Position numbers and translations under genes: made by a program. 64,000 bases of DNA from Clostridia bacterium. GTDB lineage: Bacteria; Bacillota; Clostridia; RGIG7378. The stretch covers positions 36,087 through 100,086 of the forward strand of contig JAFYSJ010000002.1 in NCBI GenBank assembly GCA_017559445.1, given 5' to 3'. Below the pieces are notes generated by a model that made no database searches, had not been told where the DNA came from, and saw nothing but the letters and a program-made list of their open reading frames with translations. Positions 347-61,602 of the stretch are shown in pieces (the first letter of the stretch is position 1; each line of letters begins with the position of its first letter).

Positions 347-1138
347 CTATTGTTTTTTTAGTTTTGCAACAACTACAACTGCTACTGTAATTACTGTCAC
401 TGACACAACAGCACAAATATAATAAATAATGTTGCTGTCTTTAAACGGTTTCTCTTCCTGATTATTATACTCCGTAAGCTTTGCTATATCAGCATTGCCT
501 ATTAACTGAACAATTTCCTCACTATTTAGAGCATAAGAACTTCCTACTGTGCAATCAAAGATACATACAATATAGATATCCTTGTATTTCAAATAACCAG
601 TCCAAGAATAACTATCACTTTCTGCAGAAGTCCAATTGTTTTCAATGACGTTATACAAATACAGATTCTTTCCTAATTCTTTAGGTACTCTTATTTGATA
701 TTGTCCCCTTCTAATCAATTCTTCTGTATCAGCTGGATCTAAATATACAGTACAACGTCTTAAATTTACTCCCTCACCAATATATATCCACTCAGTTCTA
801 ATAAACCCATATACCGCGTTGTAATATAAGTAGTCCGGTCCTTCTTCGCCCAACAATATAAAATCTAGGTTTTCAATCCCCTCAATAAATTCTAATACAA
901 ATTGGTTTCGTTCCTCTAAAGTATTACCATGGGGATACTGAACAACTGCTATTTCCTCTGCTAATTCTGCTAAATTATCTGCTTCTTTATCTAAGGCTAA
1001 AAACTCTTGAACTTTACTAAATTCCAGTTTCAATGCATACATTATAGGCATATTTGCCTCAGAAGGCACAGCTACGCAGATCATAGACATCATAATTGCA
1101 ATGCTAAATATGCATAACAGCAATCTGTATTTCTTCAT
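347..1138 (-). CDS. Hypothetical exported protein with an N-terminal signal peptide and a C-terminal transmembrane anchor
   Basis: 263-aa ORF. N-terminus MKKYRLLLCIFSIAIMMSMICVAVPSEA is signal-peptide-like. The C-terminus is a hydrophobic stretch followed by KLKKQ. No recognisable catalytic motif. Confidence 0.45.
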   Translation of the reverse strand: MKKYRLLLCIFSIAIMMSMICVAVPSEANMPIMYALKLEFSKVQEFLALDKEADNLAELAEEIAVVQYPHGNTLEERNQFVLEFIEGIENLDFILLGEEGPDYLYYNAVYGFIRTEWIYIGEGVNLRRCTVYLDPADTEELIRRGQYQIRVPKELGKNLYLYNVIENNWTSAESDSYSWTGYLKYKDIYIVCIFDCTVGSSYALNSEEIVQLIGNADIAKLTEYNNQEEKPFKDSNIIYYICAVVSVTVITVAVVVVAKLKKQ

Positions 1139-1444
1139 AAACCCTCCTTTTTAATCTCTATGATGGTCCTCTAAATGTCTAAGCATTCCACATGGAAATG
1201 AATGAAATATGCACATTTTTCATAATGTCATCATATAAAAATATTTTCCAAAAGCACAAAGAGCGCCTACACTCTTCTCCAGAGTACAGCCGCTCCCACA
1301 TAAGTCTATCTAATATTATTTAGGACTATGGTGGTAGAGCCTCTCCTCTGCCAAGCAAGCAATCACTTCTCGCCTAATTTGTCCTTTACATTTTCTTTAT
1401 AACATATTTATGTATCTTTGAAAACTATTGATCTGCTTCCTAAC

Positions 1445-1478
1445 ACAAAAAACCTTCCACGTATTTCTACATGGAAGG
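1445..1478 (-). terminator. Rho-independent terminator downstream of the M20 hydrolase/ABC operon
   Basis: Hairpin ccttccacgtatttctacatggaagg followed by a T-run on the minus strand. Confidence 0.5.
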
Positions 1479-1520
1479 CTCTAATTTTATATTCATCTGA
1501 TCTTAGGATCGTGGAGACAT

Positions 1521-1655
1521 TCACTAGCGCAGCGGCCTACTAGCGCTACAACGCGGCTCACTAGCGAATGCAATGAGCGGTTACTAGCAACGCAGTTGCG
1601 GCTCACTAGGCATAGCCGGTTCACTAACGAGCTTTGCTCGTGGTTCACTGACAAG
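1521..1655. repeat. Tandem array of CTAGTGAGCCGC-type mini-hairpin repeats (locus A, CACTAGCG orientation)
   Basis: Units cactagcgcagcggcc / tactagcgctacaacgcggctcactagcgaatgcaatgagcgg... The same family recurs at 15771, 18205, 20401, 42251 and 63537. This copy lies between the stop of the M20 gene and its terminator. Confidence 0.7.
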
Positions 1656-3042
1656 TTTTCTCGCAGAACTCTTCTCTAATCTTCACCAGCATCTCGGGCA
1701 TATGCAACAGGTCAACTGCAGTACCTGCCATTACCTTTGCTGCCAAGATCATACCCTTGTCACCAACAGAAGATGCACCACAAGATACATTCTGCCATGA
1801 GTGGCCTGGACAATTTGCTGGGAATGTGGCTGTCTCAACCTGTACTGTGGGGGTCTGCCAGCTTACATCACCTACGTCTGTGGAGCCCATGCGAACCTTA
1901 CGACATGGCTTGTATGGAACAACAAAGTTGTTAATTGCAGCCTTGCCCTTGTCAGACATCTGCCAAACCTTGTCATAGTCCTCAGTATCCAATTCATCTT
2001 CCAACTCCTTTATCTCAGGAATTGCAACAGGCGCCTCATATGACTTAATAAGGTCCTGTGCATACTGGAGTTCTTCCTTTGTGTACTCTGGAAGTCCAAC
2101 CTGAACAAAATTTTCATAAGTCAATCTCTCAAGTGGAGTGTTATTTACTGTGTTTGCTGTACTGTCTATCTGATGCACAGTAACCTGTGTCTCTGTCATA
2201 TCTGCAGCAGCTCTGGCAATTTTGTCCACGCGAGCAGCCAACTTAATGGTGTCGTGAATCTGTGGACATCTAACCATGTACACAACCTTAGCCTGTGCCT
2301 GAACTACATTGGGAGAAACTCCACCTGCATCTGTAATTGCATAGTGAATACGAGTGGAATCCGGCACATGCTCGCGCAAGAACTCAACTCCCATGTTCAT
2401 AAGCTGAATTGCATCCAGCGCACTTCTTCCACAGTCTGGATTGCCTGCCGCATGGGCTGAAATGCCGTTGAAAGTATATTCTCTCTGAATGCTTGCAATG
2501 TAAGAACCTGTTGTTACACGGTTCAAAGAACTAGGATGCCATGTAATAGCCACATCCAAATCTCTCCACACATTGTCCTCTGCCATGTAAGTCTTGGAAG
2601 CATATCCCTCCTCACCTGGGCAACCATAGAAAATAACTGTGCCTGGAAGATTGTTTTCGGTCAAATACTGCTTAACTGCACATGCTGCTGCCAAACTACC
2701 AGCACCTAACATGTTGTGACCACATCCGTGACCATTAGCACCTGCTTCAATAGGGCTGTGATATGTCTTTCCTGCCTCCTGAGAAAGGCCAGAAAGTGCA
2801 TCGAACTCGCCCAAAATACCGATGATTGGTCTACCACTACCATACCTTCCAAGGAAAGCTGTAGCCATACCAGAAAGGCCAGACTCTACTTCAAAACCCT
2901 GCTCAGCCAATACCTTGCAATAAAGCTCTGCAGATTTTGTCTCCATTAAAGAAAGCTCCGCCAGCTCCCATATTCTATGGCTGACGGAGATGAATAAATC
3001 CTGATTATTATCAATATAATTATATATGTCTTTTTTTGTCAT
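1645..3042 (-). CDS. M20 family metallo-amidohydrolase (AbgB / aminoacylase-like)
   Basis: 465 aa. Motifs GHGCGHN and the overall M20 peptidase/amidohydrolase layout are present. RBS aggag sits before the ATG at 3042. It is the last gene of an amino-acid ABC operon. Confidence 0.75.
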   Translation of the reverse strand: MTKKDIYNYIDNNQDLFISVSHRIWELAELSLMETKSAELYCKVLAEQGFEVESGLSGMATAFLGRYGSGRPIIGILGEFDALSGLSQEAGKTYHSPIEAGANGHGCGHNMLGAGSLAAACAVKQYLTENNLPGTVIFYGCPGEEGYASKTYMAEDNVWRDLDVAITWHPSSLNRVTTGSYIASIQREYTFNGISAHAAGNPDCGRSALDAIQLMNMGVEFLREHVPDSTRIHYAITDAGGVSPNVVQAQAKVVYMVRCPQIHDTIKLAARVDKIARAAADMTETQVTVHQIDSTANTVNNTPLERLTYENFVQVGLPEYTKEELQYAQDLIKSYEAPVAIPEIKELEDELDTEDYDKVWQMSDKGKAAINNFVVPYKPCRKVRMGSTDVGDVSWQTPTVQVETATFPANCPGHSWQNVSCGASSVGDKGMILAAKVMAGTAVDLLHMPEMLVKIREEFCEKTCQ

Positions 3043-3058
3043 TTTTTTGCTCCTAGGC

Positions 3059-3796
3059 TTACAAAACCTTTGACAAAAAGTCCTTAGTTCTTGGGTTCTG
3101 TGGGTTGCCGAAAATCTGCTCAGGTGTACCCTCTTCTACAACGTAACCGTCATCCATAAAGAGCACTCTGTCAGAAACTTCCTTAGCAAAGCCCATTTCG
3201 TGAGTTACGATAACAGATGTCATACCTGTCTTAACCAAACCCTTAATAACGTCAAGAACCTCTCCTACCATCTCTGGATCAAGAGCAGATGTGGGCTCGT
3301 CAAAAAGCATAACGTCAGGCTGCATAGCAAGTGCACGAACAATTGCAACTCTCTGCTTCTGACCACCAGACAATGTACCTGGCTTAACGTCTGCCTTATC
3401 TCTAAGGCCGATACGTGCAAGCAAATCCTCTGCCAATGCATTTGCCTCATCCACGGACATCTTGCCAAGAGTTGTGGGAGCCAATGTCAAATTCTGTCTA
3501 ACGGTCAAATGAGGGAACATATTGAACTGCTGGAAAACCATGCCCATCTTCTGACGGTGAATGTCGATATTAACCTTCTTGTCAGAAATATCTACGCCCT
3601 CAAAGAAAATCTGTCCCTTCTCAGGAGTTTCCAACATGTTAAGACATCTAAGGAAAGTAGACTTTCCGCTACCGGAAGGACCGATAATAGAAACAACCTC
3701 ACCCTTGGATACGTGCTGGCTAACACCCTTGAGAACGTGAAGCTTTTCGAAACTCTTGTGAATATCTACAGTTTGAATAATGTAATTGTTTTCCAT
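3059..3796 (-). CDS. Polar amino-acid ABC transporter ATP-binding protein
   Basis: Walker [10 protein letters not shown], signature LSGGQKQR and Walker [11 protein letters not shown] are present. Start chosen at MENNYI (RBS agagaggtgaataat), which overlaps the permease stop. Confidence 0.85.
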
Positions 3797-3797
3797 A

Positions 3798-4481
3798 TTA
3801 TTCACCTCTCTTAAGTCTCTTCTCAAAGGCTGATACAGCGCGTGAAAGAACGAATGTAACTACAAAATAGATCACACCAACTACAAGCAAGCACTCCATA
3901 GCCAAGAATGTGTTACCCTTAACAACCAAGTACTGAGTCATAAGGTCTCCAACGTAGAATGTGGAAGCCAAAGATGTTTCCTTGATAACTGCAACAAACT
4001 CGTTACCTAAAGCTGGCAAAATATTCTTAACAGCCTGTGGCAAAACAACCTTAGTCATTGTCTGTGCCTGAGAAAGACCAAGGCTTCGAGCGGCCTCTGT
4101 CTGACCCTTATCTACAGCCTGAATACCAGAACGAATAATCTCTGTAACGTAAGCTGCACTGTTAAGAACCAAAGCAATGCTTACACTAACAAACTTGTTA
4201 CTAGAAAGTGCAGGAATAAGCTGTGGTACCAAGAAATAACCAATGTAGAGCTGGAGCAACAATGGTGTGCCACGGATAACCTCTACAAAAGCTGTAACAA
4301 GCCATCTAAATGGTGGAATCTTGGACATCTTAAGCAATGCCAAAAGAGATCCCAAAATAGTACCGCACAAAACTGTAATCAAGGAAAGGAGCAATGTGTA
4401 TCCAAGTCCCTCAAAAACAAACAAATGCCAGTACTTTGGCAATATTTTTACAAAAATGTTTTCAATAATTTCTATAAACAT
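3798..4481 (-). CDS. Amino-acid ABC transporter permease (His/Glu/Gln/Arg family)
   Basis: Multi-TM protein with an EAA-like motif ([24 protein letters not shown]). Start set at internal MFIEII, which is preceded by RBS agaggg. Confidence 0.75.
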
Positions 4482-4567
4482 TTTACCCTCTTTACGCAAG
4501 ACGTCACCAGCTAGGTTCTTAGCTGGTGATGTCATCGGTTCATATATTAGACTAAATGGTTTCTAAA

Positions 4568-5494
4568 TTACTCTGCATCAACGATTGGGTTACCATTCTC
4601 GTCGAAGCTGATCTCAGCTGCTGTGTTGATACCGGAGAGAGCCTTGGAAGCCTCATACCACTCACCGTACAAACCAGCTGCATATGCCTTAGCAAGAACT
4701 GCGTTGATCTTGTTTGTCAAATCATCGTTACCCTTACCGATAAGAACAACGTTGTTCTCCTCTTCGGAAGATACCTCAAACTCGAAACCAGACAATGCAA
4801 CCTTGTCATTGTTTGCCATAATGGACTCTGCGTTACCCTTAGCAACTGCAACACCATCTACGATACCGGAGAGAAGTGCCTGAACTGCTGTGTTGATATC
4901 GCCGTAAACCTCAATCTTAGCACCTGTAAGCTGATCCTTGCAAAGGTTCTCCTGAAGGGAAGCGCCCTGAGCACCAATCTTCAAGCCTGCGAAATCATCT
5001 GCCTTGGAGTACTTGTTAGCCTTGTCAGCCTTAACGATGATAACCTGCTCTGTCTCGTTCTCACCAGCGTAGTAGTAATCAGAAAGGTTACAATTCTGCT
5101 TACGCTCATCTGTTACGGAGAAACCGGAAATAGAGCAATCTACAGTACCTGTCTGTACAGCAACCTGACATGCACCGAAGTCAAGTGTTACGATCTCGAG
5201 CTTCATGTTGAGCTCCTTAGCAATGTACATAGCCAAGAGAACGTCGAAACCAACAACCTTGTTCTTATCTGTCTCCATGAACTCCATTGGAGCAAAGTCA
5301 GGAGAAATAGCTACCTTAAGAACTTCTGTAGCACCATCATTCTTGTATGCCTCTTCGAATGCCCAGTACTTAGCAATCTGAGCCTCGTTATATGCCTTCT
5401 CGTTAGCGTCCAATGTATCAACATCACCGCCGCAACCAGCGAATACTGCCATGGACATAACCAATGCCAAAATCAAAGCTAAAATCTTCTTCAT
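4568..5494 (-). CDS. Amino-acid ABC transporter substrate-binding lipoprotein (family 3 SBP)
   Basis: Signal peptide with lipobox VFAGCGG. SBP_bac_3-like body. First gene of the minus-strand operon 5494 to 1645. Confidence 0.8.
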   Translation of the reverse strand: MKKILALILALVMSMAVFAGCGGDVDTLDANEKAYNEAQIAKYWAFEEAYKNDGATEVLKVAISPDFAPMEFMETDKNKVVGFDVLLAMYIAKELNMKLEIVTLDFGACQVAVQTGTVDCSISGFSVTDERKQNCNLSDYYYAGENETEQVIIVKADKANKYSKADDFAGLKIGAQGASLQENLCKDQLTGAKIEVYGDINTAVQALLSGIVDGVAVAKGNAESIMANNDKVALSGFEFEVSSEEENNVVLIGKGNDDLTNKINAVLAKAYAAGLYGEWYEASKALSGINTAAEISFDENGNPIVDAE

Positions 5495-5689
5495 ATGTAA
5501 AAACCTCGTATAAAAATAATGTACTCAAAAAGTGACTTTCACATAATACACCCGAAAAATAGATATTGCAATAGGCTTTTTGAATTTTTATTCAATTTTA
5601 TTTGTATTTCTTTTGTCTGTGCGTATTTTATGCAGTTATAATGCATATTTATTGAATTATATACAAAAATCCTGTGCATTAATTATAAT

Positions 5690-5810
5690 ATCTTACATAA
5701 TAGTGTTTTGTGTATGTCCATTACTTTGGAACGACCCAAAGTAATCAAAGGTCGCCCGCTACTTCCGAAGCGCGGGAGGCACGGGTCGCAATGCTATGCT
5801 TTGCATGCAC
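5690..5810. repeat. Structured element of about 115 bp, copy 1. An inverted near-identical copy lies at 20510-20625.
   Basis: The reverse complement of 5703-5778 matches 20540-20610 exactly over about 76 bp, and similarity extends to about 115 bp. The element contains two hairpins: CCCGCG-cttcggaagta-GCGGG and ATTACTTTGG-gtcgtt-CCAAAGTAAT. Confidence 0.6.
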
Positions 5811-5840
5811 AAAAAAGAAGCAGATCCTAAGACCTGCTTC
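5811..5840 (-). terminator. Rho-independent terminator immediately 3' of tRNA-Leu
   Basis: Hairpin gaagcaggtcttaggatctgcttc plus TTTTTT on the minus strand. Confidence 0.6.
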
Positions 5841-5841
5841 T

Positions 5842-5929
5842 TGGTGCAGCCGGGGGGACTTGAACCCCCATTAGCGTTACACTAACTAGTACCTGAAACT
5901 AGCGCGTCTGCCAATTCCGCCACGGCTGC
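5842..5929 (-). tRNA. tRNA-Leu (anticodon CAG), 88 nt, ending in an encoded CCA
   Basis: Minus-strand sequence GCAGCCGTGGCGGAATTGGCAGACGCGCTAGTTTCAGGTACTAGTTAGTGTAACGCTAATGGGGGTTCAAGTCCCCCCGGCTGCACCA. It has a 7-bp acceptor stem, anticodon stem CTAGT/ACTAG with loop UUCAGGU (anticodon CAG), a long variable arm typical of Leu, and T-arm GGGGG-TTCAAGT-CCCCC. Confidence 0.9.
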
Positions 5930-6118
5930 ATGTTTTTAGCGCAAATCATCTTAACACAGCGCCATTTTCGTGTCAACCAAACCGCAATTCTCCATATAGA
6001 TAATTCTTGTAATTTACTATTTATTACTTTACCGCCCATTTTCCTTGACTTTTGTGCAAATTAGTTGTCAAATATGTGAATCACACATTTTTTCTTATAT
6101 ATAAAGGAGATAGGAACA

Positions 6119-7084
6119 ATGAAAAATCTTAAGAAAATTCTTTCAATGGTTCTCGTAGTGGCTATGCTTGCTACTATGGCAACACTCTTTGCAGGATGTG
6201 GCAAGTCCACTTACACAGTTGGTATTTTGCAGCTTGTTGACCACGAAGCTCTTGATGCAGCTACTGAGGGCTTTAAGCAGGCACTCATCGATCGCCTTGG
6301 CGAAGAAAACGTTAAGTTCGATTACCAGAACGCTGCTGGAGACACAAACACATGTACAACTATTGCTAACAACTTCGTTACAAAGAACGTAGATCTTATT
6401 ATGGCTAACGCAACTCCCGCTTTGCAGGCTTGCGCAGGCGCTACAACAACAATCCCGATCCTTGGTACATCCGTTACTGAGTATGGCGTAGCTCTTAACA
6501 TCGAGAACTTCTCTGGTGTTACAGGTTACAACGTTTCCGGTACTTCTGACTTGGCTCCTTTGGATGAGCAGGCTCAGATGATCCTTGATCTCTTCCCTGA
6601 GGCAAAGACAGTTGGTATGCTTTACTGCTCTGCAGAAGCAAACTCTGCCTACCAGGTAAAGGTTGTTAAGGACTACCTTGAGAGCAGAAACATCACAGTT
6701 AAGGAGTTCAAGTTCTCTGACTCCAACGACGTTCAGGCTGTTACTGAGAACGCTGCTTCTAGCTGCGACGTAATTTACATTCCAACAGATAACACTGCTG
6801 CTTCTTGCACAGAGACAATCAACAACGTTTGCCAGCCTAAGAAGGTTCCGATCGTTGCTGGTGAGGCTGGTATCTGCTGCGGTTGCGGTACAGTTACACT
6901 TTCCATTAGCTACTATGAGCTTGGTTACAAGACTGGTGAGATGGCAGCTGACATCCTTGAGGGTAAGGCTTCTATCGAGTCCATGGCTATCGCATACGAT
7001 CCTAAGCCTGTTAAGAAGTACAACAAGGCTATCTGCGATGCACTTGGAATCACAGTTCCAGAAGGCTACACACCTCTCGACTAA
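6119..7084 (+). CDS. ABC transporter substrate-binding lipoprotein (COG2984/ABC_sub_bind type, TrpX-like)
   Basis: Signal peptide with lipobox LFAGCGK. 321 aa, with a GILQLVDHEALD start typical of this SBP family. Followed by its cognate permease and ATPase. Confidence 0.7.
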   Translation: MKNLKKILSMVLVVAMLATMATLFAGCGKSTYTVGILQLVDHEALDAATEGFKQALIDRLGEENVKFDYQNAAGDTNTCTTIANNFVTKNVDLIMANATPALQACAGATTTIPILGTSVTEYGVALNIENFSGVTGYNVSGTSDLAPLDEQAQMILDLFPEAKTVGMLYCSAEANSAYQVKVVKDYLESRNITVKEFKFSDSNDVQAVTENAASSCDVIYIPTDNTAASCTETINNVCQPKKVPIVAGEAGICCGCGTVTLSISYYELGYKTGEMAADILEGKASIESMAIAYDPKPVKKYNKAICDALGITVPEGYTPLD

Positions 7085-7105
7085 TTTTTTCGGAGTATTT
7101 AACTA

Positions 7106-8005
7106 ATGAACTTTTTTAACGCACTGCCAGGAGCTGTTGCCCAAGGTATTATCTGGGGCATTATGGCCATCGGCGTATATATTACTTACAAGATTCTAGA
7201 TATTGCAGACCTTACAGTAGATGGTTCTATCTGTACAGGCGCTTGCGTATGTACCATGCTTGTTATCAATGGCGTCAATGTTTGGCTAGCTATGCTAGCA
7301 GCCATGATCGTTGGAATGTTGACCGGTCTCGTGACTGGTCTCTTCCACACAGCACTTGGTATTCCACCAATCCTTTCAGGTATTTTGACACAGCTTATTC
7401 TGTGGTCCGTTAACCTTAAGATAATGGGCAAAGCTAACCAGGGCCTCAGCGCTCGTACATACAACGTTGTTATCACTCAGTTAGATAAGCTTGCATCTAT
7501 CTTAATCCTTTTGGGCATTATGCTAGTCCTTGTTGCCCTCTTGTACTGGTTCTTTGGTACAGAGCTTGGATGCTCCCTTAGAGCTACAGGTAATAACTTG
7601 GACATGTGCCGTGCACAGGGCATTAACACCAACATTAACAAGATTCTTGGTCTCGTTATTTCCAACGGTATCGTAGCTCTCTCTGGCGCTCTTCTTTGCC
7701 AGTATCAGGGTTTCTCAGATATCAACATGGGACGCGGTGCTATCGTTATCGGTTTGGCTGCTGTTATTATCGGCGAGGCACTGTTTGGCAAGATTGCAGG
7801 TAACTTTGCTCTCAAGCTTATGAGTGTAGTTGGTGGTGGTATTATTTACTACATCGTTTACCAGACAGTTATTTGGATGGGATTGGATACAGACCTCTTG
7901 AAGATGTTGTCCGCTATCGTGGTTGCAATTTTCTTGGCTGTTCCATACTGGAAGGGTAAGTACTTCTCAAAGCCTGTTAAAAAGGGAGGACATGCAAATG
8001 CTTGA
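7106..8005 (+). CDS. ABC transporter permease (COG4120-type, paired with the COG2984 SBP)
   Basis: 299-aa polytopic membrane protein placed between the SBP and the ATPase. It overlaps the ATPase start by 8 nt. Confidence 0.7.
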   Translation: MNFFNALPGAVAQGIIWGIMAIGVYITYKILDIADLTVDGSICTGACVCTMLVINGVNVWLAMLAAMIVGMLTGLVTGLFHTALGIPPILSGILTQLILWSVNLKIMGKANQGLSARTYNVVITQLDKLASILILLGIMLVLVALLYWFFGTELGCSLRATGNNLDMCRAQGINTNINKILGLVISNGIVALSGALLCQYQGFSDINMGRGAIVIGLAAVIIGEALFGKIAGNFALKLMSVVGGGIIYYIVYQTVIWMGLDTDLLKMLSAIVVAIFLAVPYWKGKYFSKPVKKGGHANA

Positions 8006-8928: not shown

Positions 8929-9189
8929 TTACGCTGCATGTACGTGATTTCTAATCTGGTCTACATTCTGGAACTTGAATCCATTTGCAATTGGTGCTGT
9001 GCCGAACTGAGATACGTATTCGATAATACCTGCCTCTGCCAACTCGATAAGGTACCCCTTAATCTTAAGTCTGTCATAGGTGGATCCGTTTACGTACATA
9101 GTTACGATTGTACCGCTCAGAGGCTGATTGTGCTCTGTGCGCTGGTAAACTTCTCTAATGAAATCATATGCACCTTGAGTAATAATCAT
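8929..9189 (-). CDS. Small hypothetical protein (86 aa)
   Basis: ORF with good RBS (aggaggtgcacgct ATG) at MIITQG. No recognisable motif. Confidence 0.4.
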   Translation of the reverse strand: MIITQGAYDFIREVYQRTEHNQPLSGTIVTMYVNGSTYDRLKIKGYLIELAEAGIIEYVSQFGTAPIANGFKFQNVDQIRNHVHAA

Positions 9190-9319
9190 AGCGTGCACCT
9201 CCTAATATTATTTAAAGTTCGCTTTAGCTCTTCATGTCTTTAACACGCTAAAGAATTAAACTTTATGCCTGCATTATAGGTCTTGCAAATACCCTTTTCA
9301 ATACGCAGTTTTGATGAAG

Positions 9320-9351
9320 TTGCACAATTTAGACATTCCGTTTTGTGCATA
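9320..9351. promoter_or_regulatory. Imperfect palindrome TTGCACAA-N13-TTGTGCA about 100 bp upstream of engB
   Basis: gttgcacaatttagacattccgttttgtgcat. The same half-site recurs in the surface-protein promoters at 56407, 58133 and 61390. Confidence 0.3.
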
Positions 9352-9445
9352 TTGCACTATACATTCTTTTGTTTCTTTAGATTTGCCCACCTTTATTCTT
9401 TGTGGTAAACTTTCTTAGCACACTCTTTGAATTAGGAGCACGTAT

Positions 9446-54653: not shown

Positions 54654-55517
54654 TTACTTTTTCTTCTTAGCAACAACAATTACAACAACTGCTGCTACGA
54701 GAACTACGCCAACAACTGCGCCTGTGATAATCCAGATTTTGCCAGCGCCCAAATCGTCGGCCTTATCATCTGCCTTGTCGTCTGTCTTATCGCCAGTTGC
54801 ATCTGTCTTGTCATCTGCACCTGTATCTGGTGTTACATCACCTGCAGATGCATTAGGATTTGTAGACTCCTCTGCCTTAATAGCCATTGTCCAATCCATC
54901 TGATATGCCTTAGCTGCTGTGAACTCTGTGCCATCATCAAACTTAAATGTAGCTGTATTTGTCTCACCAATTGCTACTGCGTTTGTCTCGTTGAAAGAAC
55001 AAACCTTGTCACCAACCTTAAGATTGTCTACGTCAAACTTAAGAACTGTGCCTACCTCATATGCTGCTGCATCACCATAGTAGAATCTTACGAAGAAGCC
55101 CTCTTCCAAATCGGATGCTGCTGTGAATGTAACATTTGTCCATCCATCATAACCTGCTGTAATAATGATTGAATCCTCTGCTGCGAACTCTTCATCAATG
55201 CACTCAATATAGTAAGCTGTAACATTGTTGTTATCATCATACTCTTCTGGAATAACGTTGAATGCCTTAGATGCAGCCTGGAAGAAACGAATGGAAAGGC
55301 CGTTATACATCAGATCATCTGTCAAGTAGGGTCTAAAGTCAAAGCTAACTGTCTGACCAGTAGTAACAGGAGTAGCGAAGTCTACCTGCAATGCGCACAT
55401 GTTCTCCTCGTCAACAGTACCGGAGATCTCCATGTAGGAGTTAGTGCCTGCAAATGCAACTGGGGCTACAGACAATGCAAGTGCCAAAATTGTAAGAATA
55501 GCAATTAATTTTTTCAT
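54654..55517 (-). CDS. Surface-protein paralogue A (287 aa): signal peptide, K/D-rich linker, and anchor module type 1 (KIWIITGAVVGV...KKKK)
   Basis: MKKLIAILTILALALSVAPVAFA signal peptide. The YYIECI core is shared with the paralogues. C-terminus DLGAGKIWIITGAVVGVVLVAAVVVIVVAKKKK. Confidence 0.7.
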   Translation of the reverse strand: MKKLIAILTILALALSVAPVAFAGTNSYMEISGTVDEENMCALQVDFATPVTTGQTVSFDFRPYLTDDLMYNGLSIRFFQAASKAFNVIPEEYDDNNNVTAYYIECIDEEFAAEDSIIITAGYDGWTNVTFTAASDLEEGFFVRFYYGDAAAYEVGTVLKFDVDNLKVGDKVCSFNETNAVAIGETNTATFKFDDGTEFTAAKAYQMDWTMAIKAEESTNPNASAGDVTPDTGADDKTDATGDKTDDKADDKADDLGAGKIWIITGAVVGVVLVAAVVVIVVAKKKK

Positions 55518-55625
55518 GTTCCACCTCTAGTGTGTTTTATTTTTATACTAAAGATTTTACCATGGCATAATTTGTAGTCAATGGTAGAAATACCTTTGTA
55601 TTCACAATTTGTTCACTTTCTACTC

Positions 55626-55657
55626 AAAAAAAGAAGACCTAATTTCTTAGGTCTTCT
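55626..55657 (-). terminator. Terminator after paralogue B
   Basis: Hairpin agaagacctaagaaattaggtcttct plus TTTTTTT on the minus strand. Confidence 0.55.
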
Positions 55658-55679
55658 TGAGTGACTATCTAACTTTAAA

Positions 55680-56321
55680 TTAGAACTCTCTCTTCTTGAG
55701 AACTACTGCACCACCGATAACTGCTGCAACTGCAACAACTGCGATAGATACAACGCCTGTCTCCTCAACTGGTGCATCCTCTGTCTCAACTGGTGTCTCC
55801 TCAACAACAACTGGCTCCTCCATAGCTGTAGCTGTAAGAGCCTCGCCAGAGTTGTATGCGTTAAGAGCAACCTCAACACCGTTAACCTTAACGCCAGCAA
55901 TCTGAGCACCTGTCATTGTGCCACCAGCAACGTTACCGCAGTCAACAGAAAGCTCGTAACCTGTGGAATCAGACATTGCTACGCACTCAATGTAGTACCA
56001 ACCATCAACCTCAGCAAGAGCGTTGTCTGTGATGTGCTTACCAGAGTAAACTTCCTTACCTGTATCGTTGCCCTCTGCATCAAGGTAGTGAGCCTTAGCA
56101 CCATCTCTAGCATACATATCAGCATTCTCAATTGTAGCAGGCTTTACCCAGAATGTGATCTTATCACCAGTCTTAACCTCACCTGCAATCTTAGCGGACC
56201 ATCTAGAACCATCACCGTTCTTGTCTTCCATATCATAGCTGTTGATAGAAGCTGCGAATGCAACGGACATGCAAGAAACTACCATAACAACTGCAATAAG
56301 AGCTGCCAAAATCTTCTTCAT
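55680..56321 (-). CDS. Surface-protein paralogue B (213 aa): signal peptide, GWYYIECV core, anchor module type 2 (PVEETGVVSIAVVAVAAVIGGAVVLKKREF)
   Basis: N-terminus MKKILAALIAVVMVVSCMSVAFA. C-terminus ...ETEDAPVEETGVVSIAVVAVAAVIGGAVVLKKREF. Confidence 0.7.
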   Translation of the reverse strand: MKKILAALIAVVMVVSCMSVAFAASINSYDMEDKNGDGSRWSAKIAGEVKTGDKITFWVKPATIENADMYARDGAKAHYLDAEGNDTGKEVYSGKHITDNALAEVDGWYYIECVAMSDSTGYELSVDCGNVAGGTMTGAQIAGVKVNGVEVALNAYNSGEALTATAMEEPVVVEETPVETEDAPVEETGVVSIAVVAVAAVIGGAVVLKKREF

Positions 56322-56406
56322 ATTTGTTTACCTCCAAAATATTTTGAATAGAAATTAAATTTCTCCCTAGATTTTAACAATGTAAATATATGGTGTCAAT
56401 GGTCCT

Positions 56407-56439
56407 TTTGCACAATTTACTTCTCTGTTTTTGTGCAAA
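56407..56439. promoter_or_regulatory. Palindromic operator TTTGCACAA-N15-TTGTGCAAA upstream of the -35 box of paralogue B
   Basis: ttttgcacaatttacttctctgtttttgtgcaaaa. On the coding strand it is followed by TTGACA-N16-TGTTAAAAT. Confidence 0.5.
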
Positions 56440-56468
56440 AAGCAAGATTTCACTTGAAATCTTGCTTT
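56436..56468 (-). terminator. Terminator after paralogue C, overlapping the paralogue-B operator half-site
   Basis: Hairpin aagcaagatttcaagtgaaatcttgctt plus T-run. Confidence 0.5.
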
Positions 56469-56483
56469 AAAAAAATTGCTTAA

Positions 56484-57233
56484 TTATGCCTTTTTCCTCT
56501 TAAGAATAATCGCAATAACTGCTGCAATAAGGGCCACACCTACCACAGCACCTGTGATAATCCACACTTTGTCTACGGACAATCCATCGTCTACTTTATT
56601 TTCATTGTTATCGTTCTTATCTGTTTCCGTATCATCTGCGATATCACCAGAAGTGTCATCTGTTGGTTCTAAATCTGAATATGGGCTTGTCATCTTAATT
56701 TTCTCTGCTTCAAGAACAAGATTGGATCCCTCAAACAAATCTGCATCAAGAGCCAACTCTACGCCGTTTATTGACATGGATGCAAAATAAATAACGGAAC
56801 CGTCTGCAGGTCGTACCTCCTTACCTGTCTCTGTGCCGTCTTCATAGAAATAGAAGAATCCCATTGTTATACCCTCTGACTCAACGGTAACATCAAAGGT
56901 AATCTTGTACCAATCATTACCGAGGAACTCTACCCAAGTCTCATCAAAAGTTTTTTCATCTGTCCACTTCTCACCAGCACCATAAACTCTAGCTGTAAGA
57001 TTTCTAACAGTAGCTTCTGTTCCTGTTTCCTGTTCCAAAATATTTGGAAGATTAATCAGAATTTCTACCTTAGCCCCTTCTACAAATTCACCCTCTGCAT
57101 AATGGAACTGAATTCTAGACTGTTCACCATCTGTAACTGTAAGCTTACAAACCTCTATTTCCTGTGCAGAAGCAAATGATGACATAGACAGCACCATTGC
57201 CATTACTGTAAGGATAGCTAATACCTTTTTCAT
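56484..57233 (-). CDS. Surface-protein paralogue C (249 aa): signal peptide, WYKITFDV core, anchor module type 1 (KVWIITGAVVGV...KRKKA)
   Basis: Start set at MKKVLAILTV with RBS aggagg. C-terminus SVDKVWIITGAVVGVALIAAVIAIILKRKKA. Confidence 0.7.
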   Translation of the reverse strand: MKKVLAILTVMAMVLSMSSFASAQEIEVCKLTVTDGEQSRIQFHYAEGEFVEGAKVEILINLPNILEQETGTEATVRNLTARVYGAGEKWTDEKTFDETWVEFLGNDWYKITFDVTVESEGITMGFFYFYEDGTETGKEVRPADGSVIYFASMSINGVELALDADLFEGSNLVLEAEKIKMTSPYSDLEPTDDTSGDIADDTETDKNDNNENKVDDGLSVDKVWIITGAVVGVALIAAVIAIILKRKKA

Positions 57234-57287
57234 GTTTTCCTCCTGAAGTTTTTGCGACATATCTATCGTCTTATATATATTACCTAA

Positions 57288-57318
57288 AATAAAAGAAGGC
57301 TCCAAAACGGAGCCTTCT
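57288..57318 (-). terminator. Terminator after paralogue D
   Basis: Hairpin gaaggctccgttttggagccttc plus TTTTATTTT. Confidence 0.55.
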
Positions 57319-57339
57319 TCAATATGTATCTAACTTAGA

Positions 57340-58050
57340 TTAGAACTCTCTCTTCTTGAGAACTACTGCACCGCCGATAACTGCTGCTACTGCAACAACT
57401 GCGATAGATACAACGCCTGTCTCCTCAACTGGAGCGTCCTCTGTCTCTGCAGGTGTCTCTGTTGCTGCGGATCTAGGATCTGCCATAGTTGTCTTAGCTG
57501 CCAATGTAGTTGCTGCAGAACCATCGAATCCGTAAACTCTAGCTGGATCTACTGCAACGCCGTTAACTGTAATGCCTGCTACCAAGCACTCTGCTACCTG
57601 AGCGTCAGGATATGTGGAGCTCTCGCCCTCATCATATGTTACAACTGCCAAGAAGTTGTCTCCGTCCTTCTGGATCTCTGCCTCGATGTAGAACCAACCA
57701 TCATCGTTCTTCCAGAGATATGCATCCTCGCTATCGAACCAAATGTCATAGCAAAGCTTATCTGTGATGTTGCCCTCAGCATCAAGTCTCTTACCCTTTG
57801 TAGAACCGCCATCAACGTGTCTTACATACATCTTAAGCTGACCAACGCCATCAATACCTGTGCCAGGAACTGCCTTTACGTAGAAACCTACGATATCGCC
57901 CTGCTTCATATCCTTAATTGCAACGCCTTCTCTGCGTCCGCCCTGATAGGACTCCATCTCATAGCAATCAATCTCATCTGCTGCAAATGCAACGGAAGAC
58001 ATAGAGAGAGCCATAGCGAGAACCAAAAGAACTGCTAAAATCTTCTTCAT
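57340..58050 (-). CDS. Surface-protein paralogue D (236 aa): signal peptide, GWFYIEAE core, anchor module type 2
   Basis: MKKILAVLLVLAMALSMSSVAFA. C-terminus PAETEDAPVEETGVVSIAVVAVAAVIGGAVVLKKREF. The 3' roughly 110 nt are nearly identical to those of B and E. Confidence 0.7.
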   Translation of the reverse strand: MKKILAVLLVLAMALSMSSVAFAADEIDCYEMESYQGGRREGVAIKDMKQGDIVGFYVKAVPGTGIDGVGQLKMYVRHVDGGSTKGKRLDAEGNITDKLCYDIWFDSEDAYLWKNDDGWFYIEAEIQKDGDNFLAVVTYDEGESSTYPDAQVAECLVAGITVNGVAVDPARVYGFDGSAATTLAAKTTMADPRSAATETPAETEDAPVEETGVVSIAVVAVAAVIGGAVVLKKREF

Positions 58051-58132
58051 TTTTGTTACCTCCATATATTAGAAAAATTACTTTCTCTTTAGTTGCATTT
58101 TACCAACGCCCACATGCATAGTCAATCATCCT

Positions 58133-58165
58133 TTTGCACAATTTTTACAATACAATTTGTGCAAA
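58133..58165. promoter_or_regulatory. Palindromic operator TTTGCACAA-N15-TTGTGCAAA upstream of the -35 box of paralogue D
   Basis: tttgcacaatttttacaatacaatttgtgcaaa, immediately 5' (on the coding strand) of TTGACT-N17-TGGTAAAAT. Confidence 0.5.
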
Positions 58166-58190
58166 GCAACAAAACCTAAGTTTCCGCATC

Positions 58191-58217
58191 AAAAAAGAGA
58201 GCCTGTAATAGGCTCTC
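58191..58217 (-). terminator. Terminator after paralogue E
   Basis: Hairpin gagagcctattacaggctctc plus TTTTTT. Confidence 0.55.
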
Positions 58218-58247
58218 CCGTGTTTGCAATATTGATCTAATTTAAAA

Positions 58248-58931
58248 TTAGAACTCTCTCTTCTTAAGAACTACTGCACCACCGATAACTGCTGCTACTG
58301 CAACAACTGCGATGGAAACAACACCTGTCTCCTCAACTGGTGCATCCTCTGTAGCTGCATCCTCTGTCTCAGCAGGTGTCTCTTCTGTTGCGCCAGGAAG
58401 AGTTACCTTAACTGCCTCAGCTGCAAGAGTAAGACCCTTACCTGTGAAGTTAGCTGCATCAAGAGTAACGTCTGTGCCGTTAACCTTAATACCTGCAACT
58501 GTCATAACAGAACCATCTGCAGGCTGAGCCTCTGTGTTGTCCTCTGTGTAGTAGAAGAATGCAACCATCATACCCTCACATGCTGCTGTTGCCTTGAATG
58601 TAAGCTCATACCAGCCATCGCCAAGGTCCTTTGCCCATGTCTCATCAATTGCCTGTCCGTTGATGAACTTGTCACCACCGTCATAAACTCTAGCTGTAAG
58701 GCTCTTAACCTTAGCTGTAGCGCCAGTAGCTACGTCTGTGATGTCAGGAAGCTGTACTGTAAGTACTACTTCATCATTAGCTGCAAGTGTAACGCCTGCA
58801 ATGTTGTACTGGAATCTTGTCTGTGTTGTAGCTGTAGCTGTAAGCTTAACTGCGTCAACGTCTGCGAATGCAACTGCAGATACAGAAAGAACCATAACAA
58901 CTGCAATAAGAGCTGCTAAAATCTTCTTCAT
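58248..58931 (-). CDS. Surface-protein paralogue E (227 aa): signal peptide, GWYELTFK core, anchor module type 2
   Basis: MKKILAALIAVVMVLSVSAVAFA. C-terminus ATEDAPVEETGVVSIAVVAVAAVIGGAVVLKKREF. Confidence 0.7.
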   Translation of the reverse strand: MKKILAALIAVVMVLSVSAVAFADVDAVKLTATATTQTRFQYNIAGVTLAANDEVVLTVQLPDITDVATGATAKVKSLTARVYDGGDKFINGQAIDETWAKDLGDGWYELTFKATAACEGMMVAFFYYTEDNTEAQPADGSVMTVAGIKVNGTDVTLDAANFTGKGLTLAAEAVKVTLPGATEETPAETEDAATEDAPVEETGVVSIAVVAVAAVIGGAVVLKKREF

Positions 58932-59031
58932 TTTTGTTACCTCTCAAAATATTAATTAATATTAGGGTATTCCCCTAATGCGAATTTTACATCATGAATC
59001 CAATGAAATCAACATTTAATTTTCTTGCACG

Positions 59032-59060
59032 AAAAAGAGGCAGAGCCTAAGCCCTGCCTC
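59032..59060 (-). terminator. Terminator after paralogue F
   Basis: Hairpin gaggcagggcttaggctctgcctc plus TTTTT. Confidence 0.55.
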
Positions 59061-59088
59061 AAATAACCTAAAACTTTATCGTTCTAAA

Positions 59089-61335
59089 TTAGAACTCCTT
59101 CTTCTTAAGAACAACTGCGCCGCCCATAATTGCTACCATAGCAACTACTGCGATAGAGATAGCACCTGTCTCCTCAGGTGTAACATCCTCTGTAATCTCA
59201 GCTGTAACAACCTCAACTACAAGGCCCTCTACTACGATAACTGTTGTGCCTGCCTCATATGCCTCACCGTTTACTGTAACGGATACAAGCTCATAACCCT
59301 CAGCAACCTCAACCTCAACTACAACCTCTGTGCCTTCGTCAATATCGCCCTCAAGAACATTACCCTCAGCATCCTTAAGAACAACTGTAGCATTCTCAGC
59401 TGTTACGTCAGGAGCGAAGATTCTAGTTGTAGCAACCATAACCTCAATACCTTCGTCTGCAATGATGCTCTTGCCAGACTCGAACTCTTCGCCGTTTACC
59501 AAGATGCCTGTAACAACGAAGCCCTCTAAAGCCTCAACCTCAATTGTGTACTCATACTTCTCTGTAAGAGCTTCCTCACCTGGGTTAACTACGTTGCCGT
59601 CAATATCCTTTACAACAACAGTAGCGCCTGCGCCTGTTACGATAAGCTGAAGAGCATCTCTTGTTGGAAGCTCAACACCTGTTGCATCAAGGAGATCTGG
59701 TTCAACAACATTGCTGTTGTTGTCTGTAACAACAGTTGTCTCGTCAAGAGCAACACCATTCACTGTAATGTTGGCAACTGCTGTTGCACCGATAGCACCA
59801 TCTGTTACATTGCCTCCATCTACAGAGAACTCAAGCTTAGAGACATCCTCTTGGAGAACGCACTCAATGTAGTACCAACCTGTCTCTTCTCCTTCGTAAA
59901 GCAAAGGAAGTGCATAGTCTACAATGTGCTTACCACTATAAACTTCATCATCTGTTCCAAGATACAATGCCTTAGCACTCTTACGAACATACATATCTGT
60001 CTTGTCAACCTCTGCTGAATCTCCAATATATACAAGGAATGTAACAACATCACCTGTCTTGAACTCATACTCTACAAAGATAGTATTTCTGCTGGAACTC
60101 TTTGCTGGCATCTCGTAGCCCAACCACCAAATTGTCTCTGTGTCCTGTGCCTGCCAATAGAAAACTGCAGAAATCCAATTAATCTTTGTATACTTCTCAA
60201 CAATTACAAGTTCAGAACCGTCGTCCCATGTATATGTAACTGTGTTCTCCTGAGAATTATCAACTACCTGATCATCATTGAAGGAAGCTGTCTTATCGCC
60301 GATCTTAAGATCGTCAATAATAATAATGCTTGCATCTGGATCAGAAACAACAAATCTAAAGAAAATACCTGTCTGCTCTGCAAGGTTCTTATATGTAACC
60401 TTATAGAAACCATCTCCCAAATCCTCAATAACAAGGTCAGAAGCAAGAGAAGCAGTCTTAATAGAGCCACTCAATCCTTCTGCATTAGCAGTAACTGCAA
60501 TAAGCTTGTTATTTGCGCTTGCATCTCTTACAGAAATCTCAGAGAAGGAGAATTCACTTTCAGAGTCATTGTAAACAACAAAAGAAACCTCTGCGTCTGC
60601 AGCAACGGACTCTTTAACAACGAACTGAATGTACTTATCATTCTCGCCCTCTGCCATACCGTTAGCCATAAAGCCTACCAAATAGTTAACTTCTAACTCT
60701 GCTCCACCCTCAACTACAAGAGATGCTGCCCAATCAAAGCCATTAACACTTCTCTCGATTGTGAACTCTGTACCATCATCATACTTAAGGGATGCGGCGT
60801 TCTTGTCTGCGAACTCTACAACATTTGCCTCGCCAAAAGAGCAAACTTTATCACCAACTGTAAGATTATCTACATCCAATGCAGCATAACCAAATGCAAT
60901 GTGAAGACCATCAGCAAGGTCTACTGTGATCTGGAAGGATACTCTGTACCAACCATCCTCAAGTGCTGTGAAAGATACTGTATCCATCGCAACAGTACCA
61001 TTATTCTTTGCCTCACCAACCTGCTCATTTACACTCCATGTGCCAGGAGTAGAAGAGCTAGGCTTTGCATAGAACAACTTTCTAGCGCCATTGTGTGTAC
61101 GAACGTCAAAAATACCACCATCATTAGTTGCTTCACCAATAGGTCTAAAATCAAATGTAACTACATCTCCTGCTGCAATTGACACAACCATGTTTAACTG
61201 GTTCTCGGGTCTGCTTGGGTAATCTTCCAAAGCTTCAACATGCATGTAAGATGTTGCCTCATCAGCAAATGCCATAGTTGGAACCAATGTCATAACCATT
61301 GCAACTGCAAGAAGAATAGCTAAAAACTTCTTCAT
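59089..61335 (-). CDS. Surface-protein paralogue F (748 aa): signal peptide, several beta-rich repeat domains, GWYYIECV core, anchor module type 2 variant (TPEETGAISIAVVAMVAIMGGAVVLKKKEF)
   Basis: Start set at MKKFLAILLAV with RBS ggagga. Carries internal Ig-like repeats (VVTGILVNGEEFESG / LVSVTVNGEAYEAG). Confidence 0.7.
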   Translation of the reverse strand: MKKFLAILLAVAMVMTLVPTMAFADEATSYMHVEALEDYPSRPENQLNMVVSIAAGDVVTFDFRPIGEATNDGGIFDVRTHNGARKLFYAKPSSSTPGTWSVNEQVGEAKNNGTVAMDTVSFTALEDGWYRVSFQITVDLADGLHIAFGYAALDVDNLTVGDKVCSFGEANVVEFADKNAASLKYDDGTEFTIERSVNGFDWAASLVVEGGAELEVNYLVGFMANGMAEGENDKYIQFVVKESVAADAEVSFVVYNDSESEFSFSEISVRDASANNKLIAVTANAEGLSGSIKTASLASDLVIEDLGDGFYKVTYKNLAEQTGIFFRFVVSDPDASIIIIDDLKIGDKTASFNDDQVVDNSQENTVTYTWDDGSELVIVEKYTKINWISAVFYWQAQDTETIWWLGYEMPAKSSSRNTIFVEYEFKTGDVVTFLVYIGDSAEVDKTDMYVRKSAKALYLGTDDEVYSGKHIVDYALPLLYEGEETGWYYIECVLQEDVSKLEFSVDGGNVTDGAIGATAVANITVNGVALDETTVVTDNNSNVVEPDLLDATGVELPTRDALQLIVTGAGATVVVKDIDGNVVNPGEEALTEKYEYTIEVEALEGFVVTGILVNGEEFESGKSIIADEGIEVMVATTRIFAPDVTAENATVVLKDAEGNVLEGDIDEGTEVVVEVEVAEGYELVSVTVNGEAYEAGTTVIVVEGLVVEVVTAEITEDVTPEETGAISIAVVAMVAIMGGAVVLKKKEF

Positions 61336-61389
61336 ATTTGTTTCCTCCATTTATTTATTGGATTAATTTCCATTTAAAAGAATATCACT

Positions 61390-61415
61390 CTGCACAATAC
61401 AATTCAATGTGCAAA
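61390..61415. promoter_or_regulatory. Palindrome TGCACAAT-N10-TGTGCAAA upstream of paralogue F
   Basis: ctgcacaatacaattcaatgtgcaaac. Confidence 0.4.
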
Positions 61416-61602
61416 CAAGCTTTTTGTCACTTTCTACAATCTGCAATCTAATAATTTATGCAAAACAACAACTCTTCTTATCTGTTTCACAATATAACCA
61501 ATTTTTTGTCATTATTTTTGTACACAATTTAGTCATATTTCTGTGCCATTGATCACATTTTTTGGTATAATTCCTTTATATACCTTATATATGGAGGTAC
61601 AT

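Follow-up and report, generated by a model that had tools for sequence, protein, structure and literature searches.

An inverted repeat with a 15- or 16-nucleotide spacer lies upstream of predicted sigma-A promoters in gut and rumen Clostridia and their phages

RESULTS AND DISCUSSION

A perfect inverted repeat precedes two of six surface-protein paralogs

We analyzed a 64,000-nucleotide (nt) stretch of DNA from a Clostridia bacterium (contig JAFYSJ010000002.1), referred to here as the window and numbered from its first letter, for an inverted repeat that stands upstream of surface-protein genes. Exact protein matches assign the window to a metagenome-assembled Clostridia bacterium of gut or rumen-type origin. 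The locus holds six tandem surface-protein paralogs, A to F, small secreted proteins in which a signal peptide is followed by a variable beta-rich body, then an acidic linker, and finally a C-terminal membrane anchor with a basic end; four of the six terminate in ...VVLKKREF. The paralogs have no confident Pfam match, and the family appears lineage restricted because only 28 homologs were found among 5.8 billion proteins. The cluster is located beside TMEM164-like and GH20 genes, and the same gene order is found in related metagenome-assembled genomes (MAGs). The features on which the analysis rests are as follows.

54654-61350, minus strand: six tandem surface-protein paralogs, each with its own terminator and promoter
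55680-56321, minus strand: paralog B gene, encoding a 213-amino-acid secreted protein with a C-terminal membrane anchor
56371-56399, minus strand: predicted sigma-A promoter of paralog B, TTGACA (56399-56394), 17 nt, TG-extended TAAAAT (56376-56371), 11/12 matches
56407-56439, upstream of a minus-strand gene: inverted repeat TTTGCACAA-N15-TTGTGCAAA of paralog B, proximal arm 56407-56415, distal arm 56431-56439
56441-56468, minus strand: terminator hairpin of paralog C, the gene upstream of B, read from the sequence, with a T-run overlapping the TTT of the distal arm
57340-58065, minus strand: paralog D surface-protein gene
58097-58125, minus strand: predicted sigma-A promoter of paralog D, TTGACT (58125-58120), 17 nt, TG-extended TAAAAT, 10/12 matches
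58133-58165, upstream of a minus-strand gene: inverted repeat TTTGCACAA-N15-TTGTGCAAA of paralog D, both arms perfect

The inverted repeats described 5' of the -35 box at B and D in an earlier reading of this DNA (the original prediction) are present, with perfect arms separated by N15. Their plus-strand sequences are TTTGCACAATTTACTTCTCTGTTTTTGTGCAAA at B and TTTGCACAATTTTTACAATACAATTTGTGCAAA at D, so that the arms are identical while the 15-nt spacers are unlike. Read along the minus strand, both loci follow the same order, with the terminator of the preceding paralog, the repeat, the promoter, the ribosome-binding site, and the ATG, and the gap between the proximal arm and the predicted -35 box is 7 nt in each. 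If the transcript is assumed to start about 7 nt past the -10 box, the repeat is centered near -59 at both genes, in agreement with the 55 to 60 bp initially proposed. Both copies carry only weak outer half-sites. We compared the window with second-order Markov shuffles of itself and found two sites with at most one mismatch, where the shuffles never produced any, and four sites with at most two mismatches and spacers of 8 to 20, where the shuffle mean was 0.08. A chance origin of the window repeats is excluded.

The perfect repeat is limited to B and D, and no copy was found upstream of paralogs A, C, and E. Paralog F is preceded by a weak N16 copy with three mismatches, which is a doubtful member. 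Another copy at F had been claimed, but it has an N9 spacer and wraps the predicted -35 box, and N9 is not an enriched spacing (spacings N10 to N23 were tested); we therefore treat it as a different element and do not count it. The suggestion that the repeat is an operator of the surface-protein family does not survive either, as only two of the six paralogs carry it and unrelated genes in many Clostridia are preceded by the same element.

The element is widespread in gut and rumen Clostridia and their phages

To assess the distribution of the repeat, we scanned one genome per species from 185,579 species for the exact pattern TTTGCACAA-N12..18-TTGTGCAAA, which returned at least 120 loci. Among the matches listed, the counts for spacers N12 to N18 were 14, 12, 8, 24, 47, 13, and 7, and four of the N15 matches were contigs of the window's own organism. 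A tally of record titles among the matches listed assigns 37 of the 47 N16 matches to Clostridia, compared with about 8 of the 54 matches with other spacers. The Clostridial N16 carriers include Acutalibacteraceae, Ruminococcus and other Ruminococcaceae, Oscillospiraceae, some Lachnospiraceae, and Acetivibrio. Additional imperfect sites within the scanned loci show the same preference (11 with N16 versus 0 to 3 for each of the other spacers from N10 to N21). Approximately 61 of 69 N15/16 sites lie outside long reading frames, making about 90% of them intergenic. Among the matches listed on viral contigs, 7-mer cores with N16 outnumber those with N15 by 110 to 24, where chance would give about 1:1, and several viral contigs carry three or four sites.

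The motif core is TGCACAA-N15/16-TTGTGCA, usually within TTTGCACAAA...TTTGTGCAAA, with N16 as the canonical spacer elsewhere and N15 in the lineage of the window. The proposed spacer range of N15 to N17 is thus upheld for N15 and N16, while the spacer counts place N17 outside the motif. The element is common to gut and rumen Clostridia, mostly Oscillospirales, and to their phages, and the genome-wide scan that had been suggested yielded strong enrichment as well as the strong positional bias toward promoters described below.

A dense set of sites occurs on an Eubacteriales MAG contig (L039, JBNMKO010000061.1, positions 1-8000), where six sites fall within 8 kb in a stretch of small orphan genes. 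In five of the six, a gap of 7 nt separates the site from the -35-like hexamer that follows it (TTGACT in four). These five belong to a repeated promoter cassette, in which the repeat is followed by TTGACT-17-TATACT and then by a second consensus promoter about 70 nt downstream (five of the six sites). A perfect parS site, TGTTTCACGTGAAACA, is also present near position 710. The stretch has the appearance of an early region of a phage or plasmid, and the parS site brings to mind phages that exploit partition and sporulation factors of the host, as phi29 does with Spo0A and Spo0J. Comparison of the contig with annotated phages and plasmids gave only tiny similarity matches.

The arms are conserved while the spacers drift

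Four related organisms (L253, L255, L256, and L257) yielded syntenic surface-protein clusters, with orthologs 80% identical in L253 and 55% identical in L256. Four promoters in L253 and L256 have both arms perfect, an N15 spacer, and a 7-nt gap to TTGACA, among them the promoters of the genes at 9412 in L253 and at 8856 in L256, which are paralogs of the same family. The 15-nt spacers of the four are unlike one another and unlike those of B and D, and the orthologous B promoter of L253 retains perfect arms around a diverged spacer. Perfect arms amid drifting spacers read as the footprint of selection on the arms.

This pattern bears on the alternative that the repeats have no function and are leftovers of the tandem duplication of the paralogs, or else form an RNA hairpin or terminator. 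B and D are indeed paralogs that resemble each other over about 25 nt around the proximal arm and the -35 box, and their repeats can fold, with -13.8 and -10.6 kcal/mol. However, the spacers differ while the arms stay identical, across species as well as within the window, and a third copy in the window and hundreds of nonhomologous copies elsewhere have no place in a history of paralog duplication. Intrinsic terminators have a stable, G+C-rich hairpin with a U-run behind it. An RNA or terminator role is unlikely given a 15-nt loop, the lack of a U-run, modest z-scores of -0.9 to -3.0, a position upstream of the promoter, and the absence of any Rfam match for the repeat. The enrichment, the viral copies, and the cross-species footprint already contradict the notion of a sequence without function, which we find hardly credible.

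The genes downstream of Clostridial sites share no common pathway. Reading their translations identified veg, ylmC/ymxH, secA, carA, fabH, short-chain dehydrogenases, gpr, and cinA, along with MATE, sugar, and peptide transporters, lipoproteins, antitoxins, and small phage-like genes. In an Oscillospiraceae MAG (L115, 3047-3229), a perfect N16 repeat stands 5 nt upstream of the TTGACA of the S10 promoter, which precedes the S10-Clostridia leader (Rfam RF03136) and rpsJ. Of 68 related metagenome loci, 15 have degenerate N15/16 copies ahead of rpsJ, compared with 1 to 8 for control spacer pairs. The element is general, and the promoters that carry it are often strong vegetative ones. The repeat is better supported than the original prediction could know, and the earlier interpretation was right in kind and wrong in scope.

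The repeat occupies fixed positions relative to predicted promoters

Within 60 nt of 210 unique sites, we found 152 good sigma-70-type matches, and flanks 400 nt away, taken as the control, gave 23. Measured between the arm core (TTGTGCA) and the -35 box, the distances form sharp peaks at 9 nt (34 matches) and 10 nt (24 matches) against a flat control, and further classes occur at 19 to 20 nt (18 matches) and 30 nt (5 matches), plus 25, 33 to 35, and 45 to 46 nt. The classes at 9 to 10, 19 to 20, and 30 nt place the center of the repeat at about -59.5/-60.5, -70, and -80. Sites with N15 and N16 share the same distance of 9 to 10 nt, so it is the promoter-proximal arm whose register with the polymerase is fixed. 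At many phage sites, a second -35 box mirrors the first across the repeat, which then lies between divergent promoters. The spacer is A-rich beside the left arm and T-rich beside the right arm.

A second layout uses the same half-sites. The 17-bp palindrome TTGTGCA-N3-TGCACAA, with at most one mismatch, occurs at 10 Clostridial and 26 viral sites, compared with 0 to 3 at other spacings, and usually has one half in common with an N16 repeat, as in the typical phage promoter [TTGTGCA-N3-TGCACAA]-N16-[TTGTGCA]-N9-[-35]. The flanks also show weak outer half-sites, namely TG(C) at positions +4 to +6 beyond the proximal arm and CA-NNN ahead of the distal arm. Part of the apparent strength of the inner arms over the outer ones comes from retrieval with perfect inner arms. 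The spacing counts also contain a direct-repeat peak at N18-19, which we read as an artifact of the overlapping TGCA in the inverted arm.

A host-encoded general regulator is the favored reader of the arms

Judging from sequence features, the repeat, placed ahead of the -35 box of sigma-A promoters, is probably the binding site of a putative symmetric, most likely host-encoded general regulator. This regulator, a sequence-specific DNA-binding protein, would dock on the arms, on one fixed helix face just upstream of the -35 box, and would touch RNA polymerase through the C-terminal domain of its alpha subunit (alpha-CTD) and/or sigma region 4. Two geometries may be envisaged. In the first, one dimer or oligomer would place its reading heads about 24 to 25 bp apart and leave the central 12 to 14 bp untouched. 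In the second, two dimers would sit on 17-bp palindromes near -43 and -76, separated by 32 to 33 bp or three turns, with degenerate outer half-sites. The activator- or dimeric-regulator-type site initially proposed next to the -35 box fits this reading in kind, as an inverted repeat with selected arms in the expected place. Within the window, the element would modulate paralogs B and D, which are strongly promoted, and probably also the small orphan gene beside engB.

Boosting or recruiting the polymerase, as in class I/II-type activation, would be more likely than repression because most sites lie wholly upstream of the core promoter rather than over the -35 box, the -10 box, or +1, because the series at -59, -70, and -80 has the helical phasing of class I activator sites, and because the -35 boxes of many phage promoters that carry the element are poor (TAGACA, TTGCAA, TTCCCA, and TGGACG), as in activator-dependent promoters. 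The same observations, together with the S10 operon and veg among the targets, tell against a repressor or silencer on these sites, whether linked to growth phase or sporulation or directed at mobile DNA, that silences intrinsically strong promoters by denying access to alpha-CTD or sigma region 4 or by bridging two operators. Such a protein would suit the core promoters beside the sites, which are often near consensus (B, D, and many others), and the density of sites in phage- or plasmid-like early regions, one of which has the parS site. It would also suit the outer half of the proximal 17-bp palindrome, which reaches the first base of the -35 box, and the arm abutting a TTGCAC that serves as the -35 box in some elements. 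We consider repression rather unlikely, though a serious rival.

The position of the element also raises the question of whether RNA polymerase itself reads the arms. UP elements are A/T-rich regions from -38 to -59 that are bound by alpha-CTD and lack conserved G/C, with the distal subsite AAAWWTWTTTT. Like UP elements and Fis sites, the repeat stands upstream of the -35 box at very strong promoters (ribosomal operon, veg, and phage early), and its interior is A/T rich, with AAAATTTTGTG resembling the distal subsite. A clade-specific, symmetric UP-like element, contacted by two alpha-CTDs or by a stoichiometric subunit with no separate regulator, would account for this company of strong promoters and for the A- and T-rich spacer ends. 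It would also explain why the repeat occupies -43 to -76, where alpha-CTDs bind, and why it is universal over unrelated host genes and many phages while the element-specific boxes described below vary. However, the strictly conserved, G/C-containing inverted arms, with invariant GTGCA/TGCAC, are not a feature of UP elements, and the known targets of alpha-CTD are A/T minor grooves rather than GTGCA. Compact 17-bp palindromes and arrays of the arms, which are typical of dimeric regulators, occur as well, and only a minority of promoters carry the element (about three sites in 64 kb and two of six paralogs). Direct reading by the polymerase is accordingly improbable in our estimation. Fis is not known from Firmicutes.

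Mobile elements nest their own boxes inside the shared element

Genes for Arc-like ribbon-helix-helix proteins (phrog_13890) are tightly tied to the sites, with 13 of 17 located 58 to 111 nt (mostly 69 to 75 nt) downstream of one. Their promoter module is found at L150 9291-9627, L175 3780-4092, L134 5700-5800, L169 5570-5660, and similar viral loci. At these promoters, the 16-nt spacer holds a box of 10 to 16 nt that is specific to the element, and further copies of this box lie in both flanks at intervals of about three helical turns. The nested boxes look like operators of the mobile element's own repressor, that is, private operators inside a common element. If so, the center of the spacer would be free of other contacts, and the Arc-like proteins would more likely read the nested variable boxes than the arms. 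As the arms stay constant while the boxes vary by element, the arms would be read by a factor common to hosts and elements.

A regulator brought in by a mobile element, either an Arc-like ribbon-helix-helix or a MarR-like winged-helix protein, with chromosomal copies controlled by a resident element, would instead explain why the Arc-like genes lie just downstream of a site, the classic layout of autoregulation, and why a MarR-like family recurs in the same elements. Yet the nested box is a better candidate for an Arc-like operator than the constant arms, the winged-helix gene stands at no fixed distance from sites, with two or three of them in the surrounding 20 kb, and neither an Arc-like nor a MarR-like gene is present in the window. 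Sites at S10, veg, and secA in many species further point to a host factor. We regard an imported regulator as quite improbable. The invariance of the arms across elements favors the host-encoded general regulator over a mobile-element protein, with the polymerase itself as the less likely reader of that kind.

A bolder proposal, to which we assign a low probability, is that the arms form a third, clade-specific element associated with the core promoter in Oscillospirales-type Clostridia and read by RNA polymerase, through its alpha-CTDs or a stoichiometric subunit, or by an abundant Fis-like general factor. Host growth genes (S10, veg, and secA), surface proteins, and unrelated phage and plasmid early promoters would all plug into it, and private operators would nest in its uncontacted spacer.

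Several points weigh against the host-regulator reading. The core promoters of B and D are near consensus with an extended -10 box and have no obvious need for an activator. All promoters in the analysis are consensus matches and hence predictions, and the distance classes at 25 and 45 to 46 nt are off helical phase and are left without explanation. Because sites were gathered by an exact pattern, their inner arms are perfect by construction; clades were assigned from record titles and MAG taxonomy, and "viral" refers to the IMG/VR contig label. Two of the related organisms (L255 and L257) have the same core promoter with only a degenerate repeat, indicating that the element is an add-on and not part of the core promoter. 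No recurrent regulator gene was found among the first genes downstream of 60 to 80 Clostridial sites (clustering returned pairs only). Gene calls with Pfam over the whole window, whose core chromosomal genes include spoIIR, ksgA, metG, engB, ftsK, RNase Y, mreB, and an oxaloacetate-decarboxylase-like biotin enzyme, show no obvious regulator or transcription factor, and gene-neighbor, window, and phage-gene searches found no binding protein.

Transcription control in the uncultured Oscillospirales-type Clostridia that dominate the gut and rumen is almost unexplored. If the host-regulator reading holds, two of the six surface-protein paralogs would be tied into a general circuit and the others would not. 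The element could then open a route to a global regulator or a polymerase-level promoter code common to host, surface-protein, and phage or plasmid promoters, and it could serve as a sequence marker linking phages to hosts and as a ready part for promoter engineering in these Clostridia.

Comparison with known operators and activator sites

The element appears to be an operator or upstream activating site that none of the known systems we compared matches. The original prediction found no match among common Firmicute operators, and this held up in our comparison. On sequence or spacing, we tentatively rejected cre, CodY, Rex, Spo0A, Fur/PerR/Zur, CIRCE, NrdR, LexA, and ArgR, as well as TnrA/GlnR, the PurR PurBox, FabT, the MarA marbox, LuxR/TraR boxes, NtrC, and lambda CII. 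The literature covered, which left most subscription journals outside, describes no such element for Ruminococcaceae or Faecalibacterium, and a search by sequence words brought up only primers and a paper on PhaR. Of the described sites compared, the PhaR/AniA box is nearest in sequence, and long-spacer repeats and class I/II activator sites come closest in architecture.

The best PhaR/AniA sites of Sinorhizobium meliloti are TTGTGCA-n-TGCACAA, with AT-rich arms and the core YGCRNYGCR, and two copies of the box flank the -35 box of phasin promoters; PhaR, from Proteobacteria, is a repressor and a sensor of the storage polymer polyhydroxybutyrate (PHB) (PMC12542648). The half-sites are identical to ours. 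However, N1, the spacing of the PhaR box, has counts of 0 here, with enrichment only at N3, and no PhaR-type protein or PHB pathway is evident.

Long-spacer repeats provide the closest architecture. The BirA operator bioO is TTGTAAACC-N16-GGTTTACAA, the NikR site is GTATGA-N16-TCATAC, the phi29 p4 site is CTTTTT-N15-AAAATG, and the SPbeta AimR site is 6-N25-6. As in these systems, short arms are set apart, at 15 to 16 bp here, around an interior presumably free of contacts, which one oligomer could span over more than two helical turns, and p4 also acts on the polymerase from upstream. The arm sequences differ in every case. BirA and NikR are narrow repressors over the promoters of one pathway, and p4 and AimR are phage specific with one or few sites, in contrast to the dozens of host and phage targets found here. 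The repeat has the 9-N15/16-9 format of the BirA operator but lacks its half-site, TGTWAAC over biotin-gene promoters, and lies instead upstream of the -35 box of unrelated genes.

Escherichia coli CRP binds at -61.5, -71.5, and -82.5 (class I) and at -41.5 (class II). The element resembles CRP and FNR sites as a symmetric sequence upstream of the -35 box, with helically phased centers near -59/-60, -70, and -80 and half-sites that start with TTGTG. If the 17-bp palindrome is the unit, its center near -43 would match class II. The sequences themselves are different, with TGTGC-N5-GCACA or CACAA-N16-TTGTG here and TGTGA-N6-TCACA or TTGAT-N4-ATCAA there, and the window encodes no Crp/Fnr protein.

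Compact palindromes for helix-turn-helix dimers come close in sequence. NtrC binds TGCACCA-N3-TGGTGCA, the TraR tra box is ATGTGCAGATCTGCACAT, and Rex recognizes the 18-bp TTGTGAA-N4-TTCACAA or TTGTTAA-N4-TTAACAA. Their half-sites are one or two bases away from TGCACAA/TTGTGCA but differ in orientation, or in spacing by 1 to 13 bp. NtrC works with sigma-54, TraR belongs to proteobacterial quorum sensing, and Rex represses fermentation genes. The palindrome found here is 17 bp with GCA as its inner bases, unlike that of Rex, and N4 is not enriched. Tandem NrdR boxes, reportedly described by Rodionov and Gelfand in 2005, consist of two 16-bp palindromes spaced 31 to 32 bp from center to center. 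This resembles the two-dimer geometry with palindromes three turns apart, and the NrdR half-site ACACAAT resembles GCACAAT. However, a single NrdR box has CACAA and TTGTG spaced by about 4 bp, and the regulon comprises ribonucleotide reductases only.

The remaining comparisons are more distant. A LysR-type box is a 15-bp T-N11-A dyad near -65 with an activation site near -35, usually beside a divergent LysR gene, in contrast to a 33- to 34-bp repeat with 9-bp arms and no divergent regulator gene. The Spo0A 0A box, TGTCGAA, usually occurs in tandem direct repeats, and the inverted TGTGCAA arms, with GC for CG, bear a resemblance only. LytTR sites are two 9-bp direct repeats 12 to 13 bp apart just upstream of the -35 box, unlike the inverted arms separated by N15/16. 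The element recognized by Spx with alpha-CTD is a single AGCA at -45 to -42. Position -45 of the trxB promoter is an A, as given by the A-45T mutagenic primer (PMC2801614). In our repeat, TGCA spans about -48 to -45 and has an inverted partner.

A third copy in the window and other features

The remaining copies and their surroundings in the window are as follows.

9319-9351, no strand: third N15 copy, GTTGCACAA-N15-TTGTGCATA, between engB and a divergent orphan gene, one mismatch per arm
9343-9359, no strand: 17-bp palindrome TTGTGCA-TAT-TGCACTA, one mismatch, formed by the right arm of the third copy and an outer half-site
9273-9301, minus strand: best promoter beside the third copy, TTGAAA-17-TATAAT, predicted, 11/12 matches, the sole strong one there
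8947-9207, minus strand: 86-amino-acid orphan gene, divergent from engB, with a near-consensus predicted promoter and the repeat one helical turn upstream
61431-61464, minus strand: weak N16 copy upstream of paralog F, three mismatches, doubtful member
61389-61415, minus strand: N9-spaced repeat at paralog F, overlapping the predicted -35 box, not counted as a member

The weaker copy noted upstream of engB is real, with N15 and two mismatches in total, but its link to engB is not supported, as the best promoter faces the 86-amino-acid gene. At this promoter, the arm core is 19 nt from TTGAAA, one helical turn further out than at B and D, and the third copy more likely serves the orphan gene than engB. 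The 86-amino-acid protein has a winged-helix look by eye; with no Pfam match and only five homologs, it was rejected as a candidate for the general factor.

Isolated half-sites had also been pointed out upstream of the COG2984-type ABC operon (here 6052-6059) and upstream of paralog E. They are present at chance frequency, with 78 matches to the half-site 8-mer (at most one mismatch) in the window compared with 94 expected, and lone half-sites carry no weight because the single half-site is not enriched. One of them, TTTGTGCAAA, is found within the spacer of a possible TTGACT-17-TCAAAT promoter at 6046-6076, before an ATP-binding cassette (ABC) substrate-binding gene at 6119-7084. The amino-acid ABC operon and the COG2984-type ABC operon are separated by a long intergenic region that contains a tRNA gene (5845-5929, minus strand).

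The MarR-like winged-helix family was rejected as the binder of the arms because it is not positionally tied to the sites. It has 3196 homologs, one exact sequence of which is present on more than 300 contigs, and no relative with a solved structure was found for it. Human-gut contigs of about 195 to 200 kb carry the gene (L258 to L260), and the 20 kb around it hold about 45 tiny orphan genes and only two or three sites. The family marks a prevalent gut element of about 200 kb, with the style of a jumbo-phage early region around the gene.

Prevotella MAG contigs (L019, L042, L079, and L092) contain the same 9-mers as TTTGCACAAAGGGGTCTGACCCCTTTGTGCAAA, whose spacer is a G+C-rich hairpin that is nearly identical across loci. 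This is a different sequence, repeat-element- or terminator-like, with only the arms in common.

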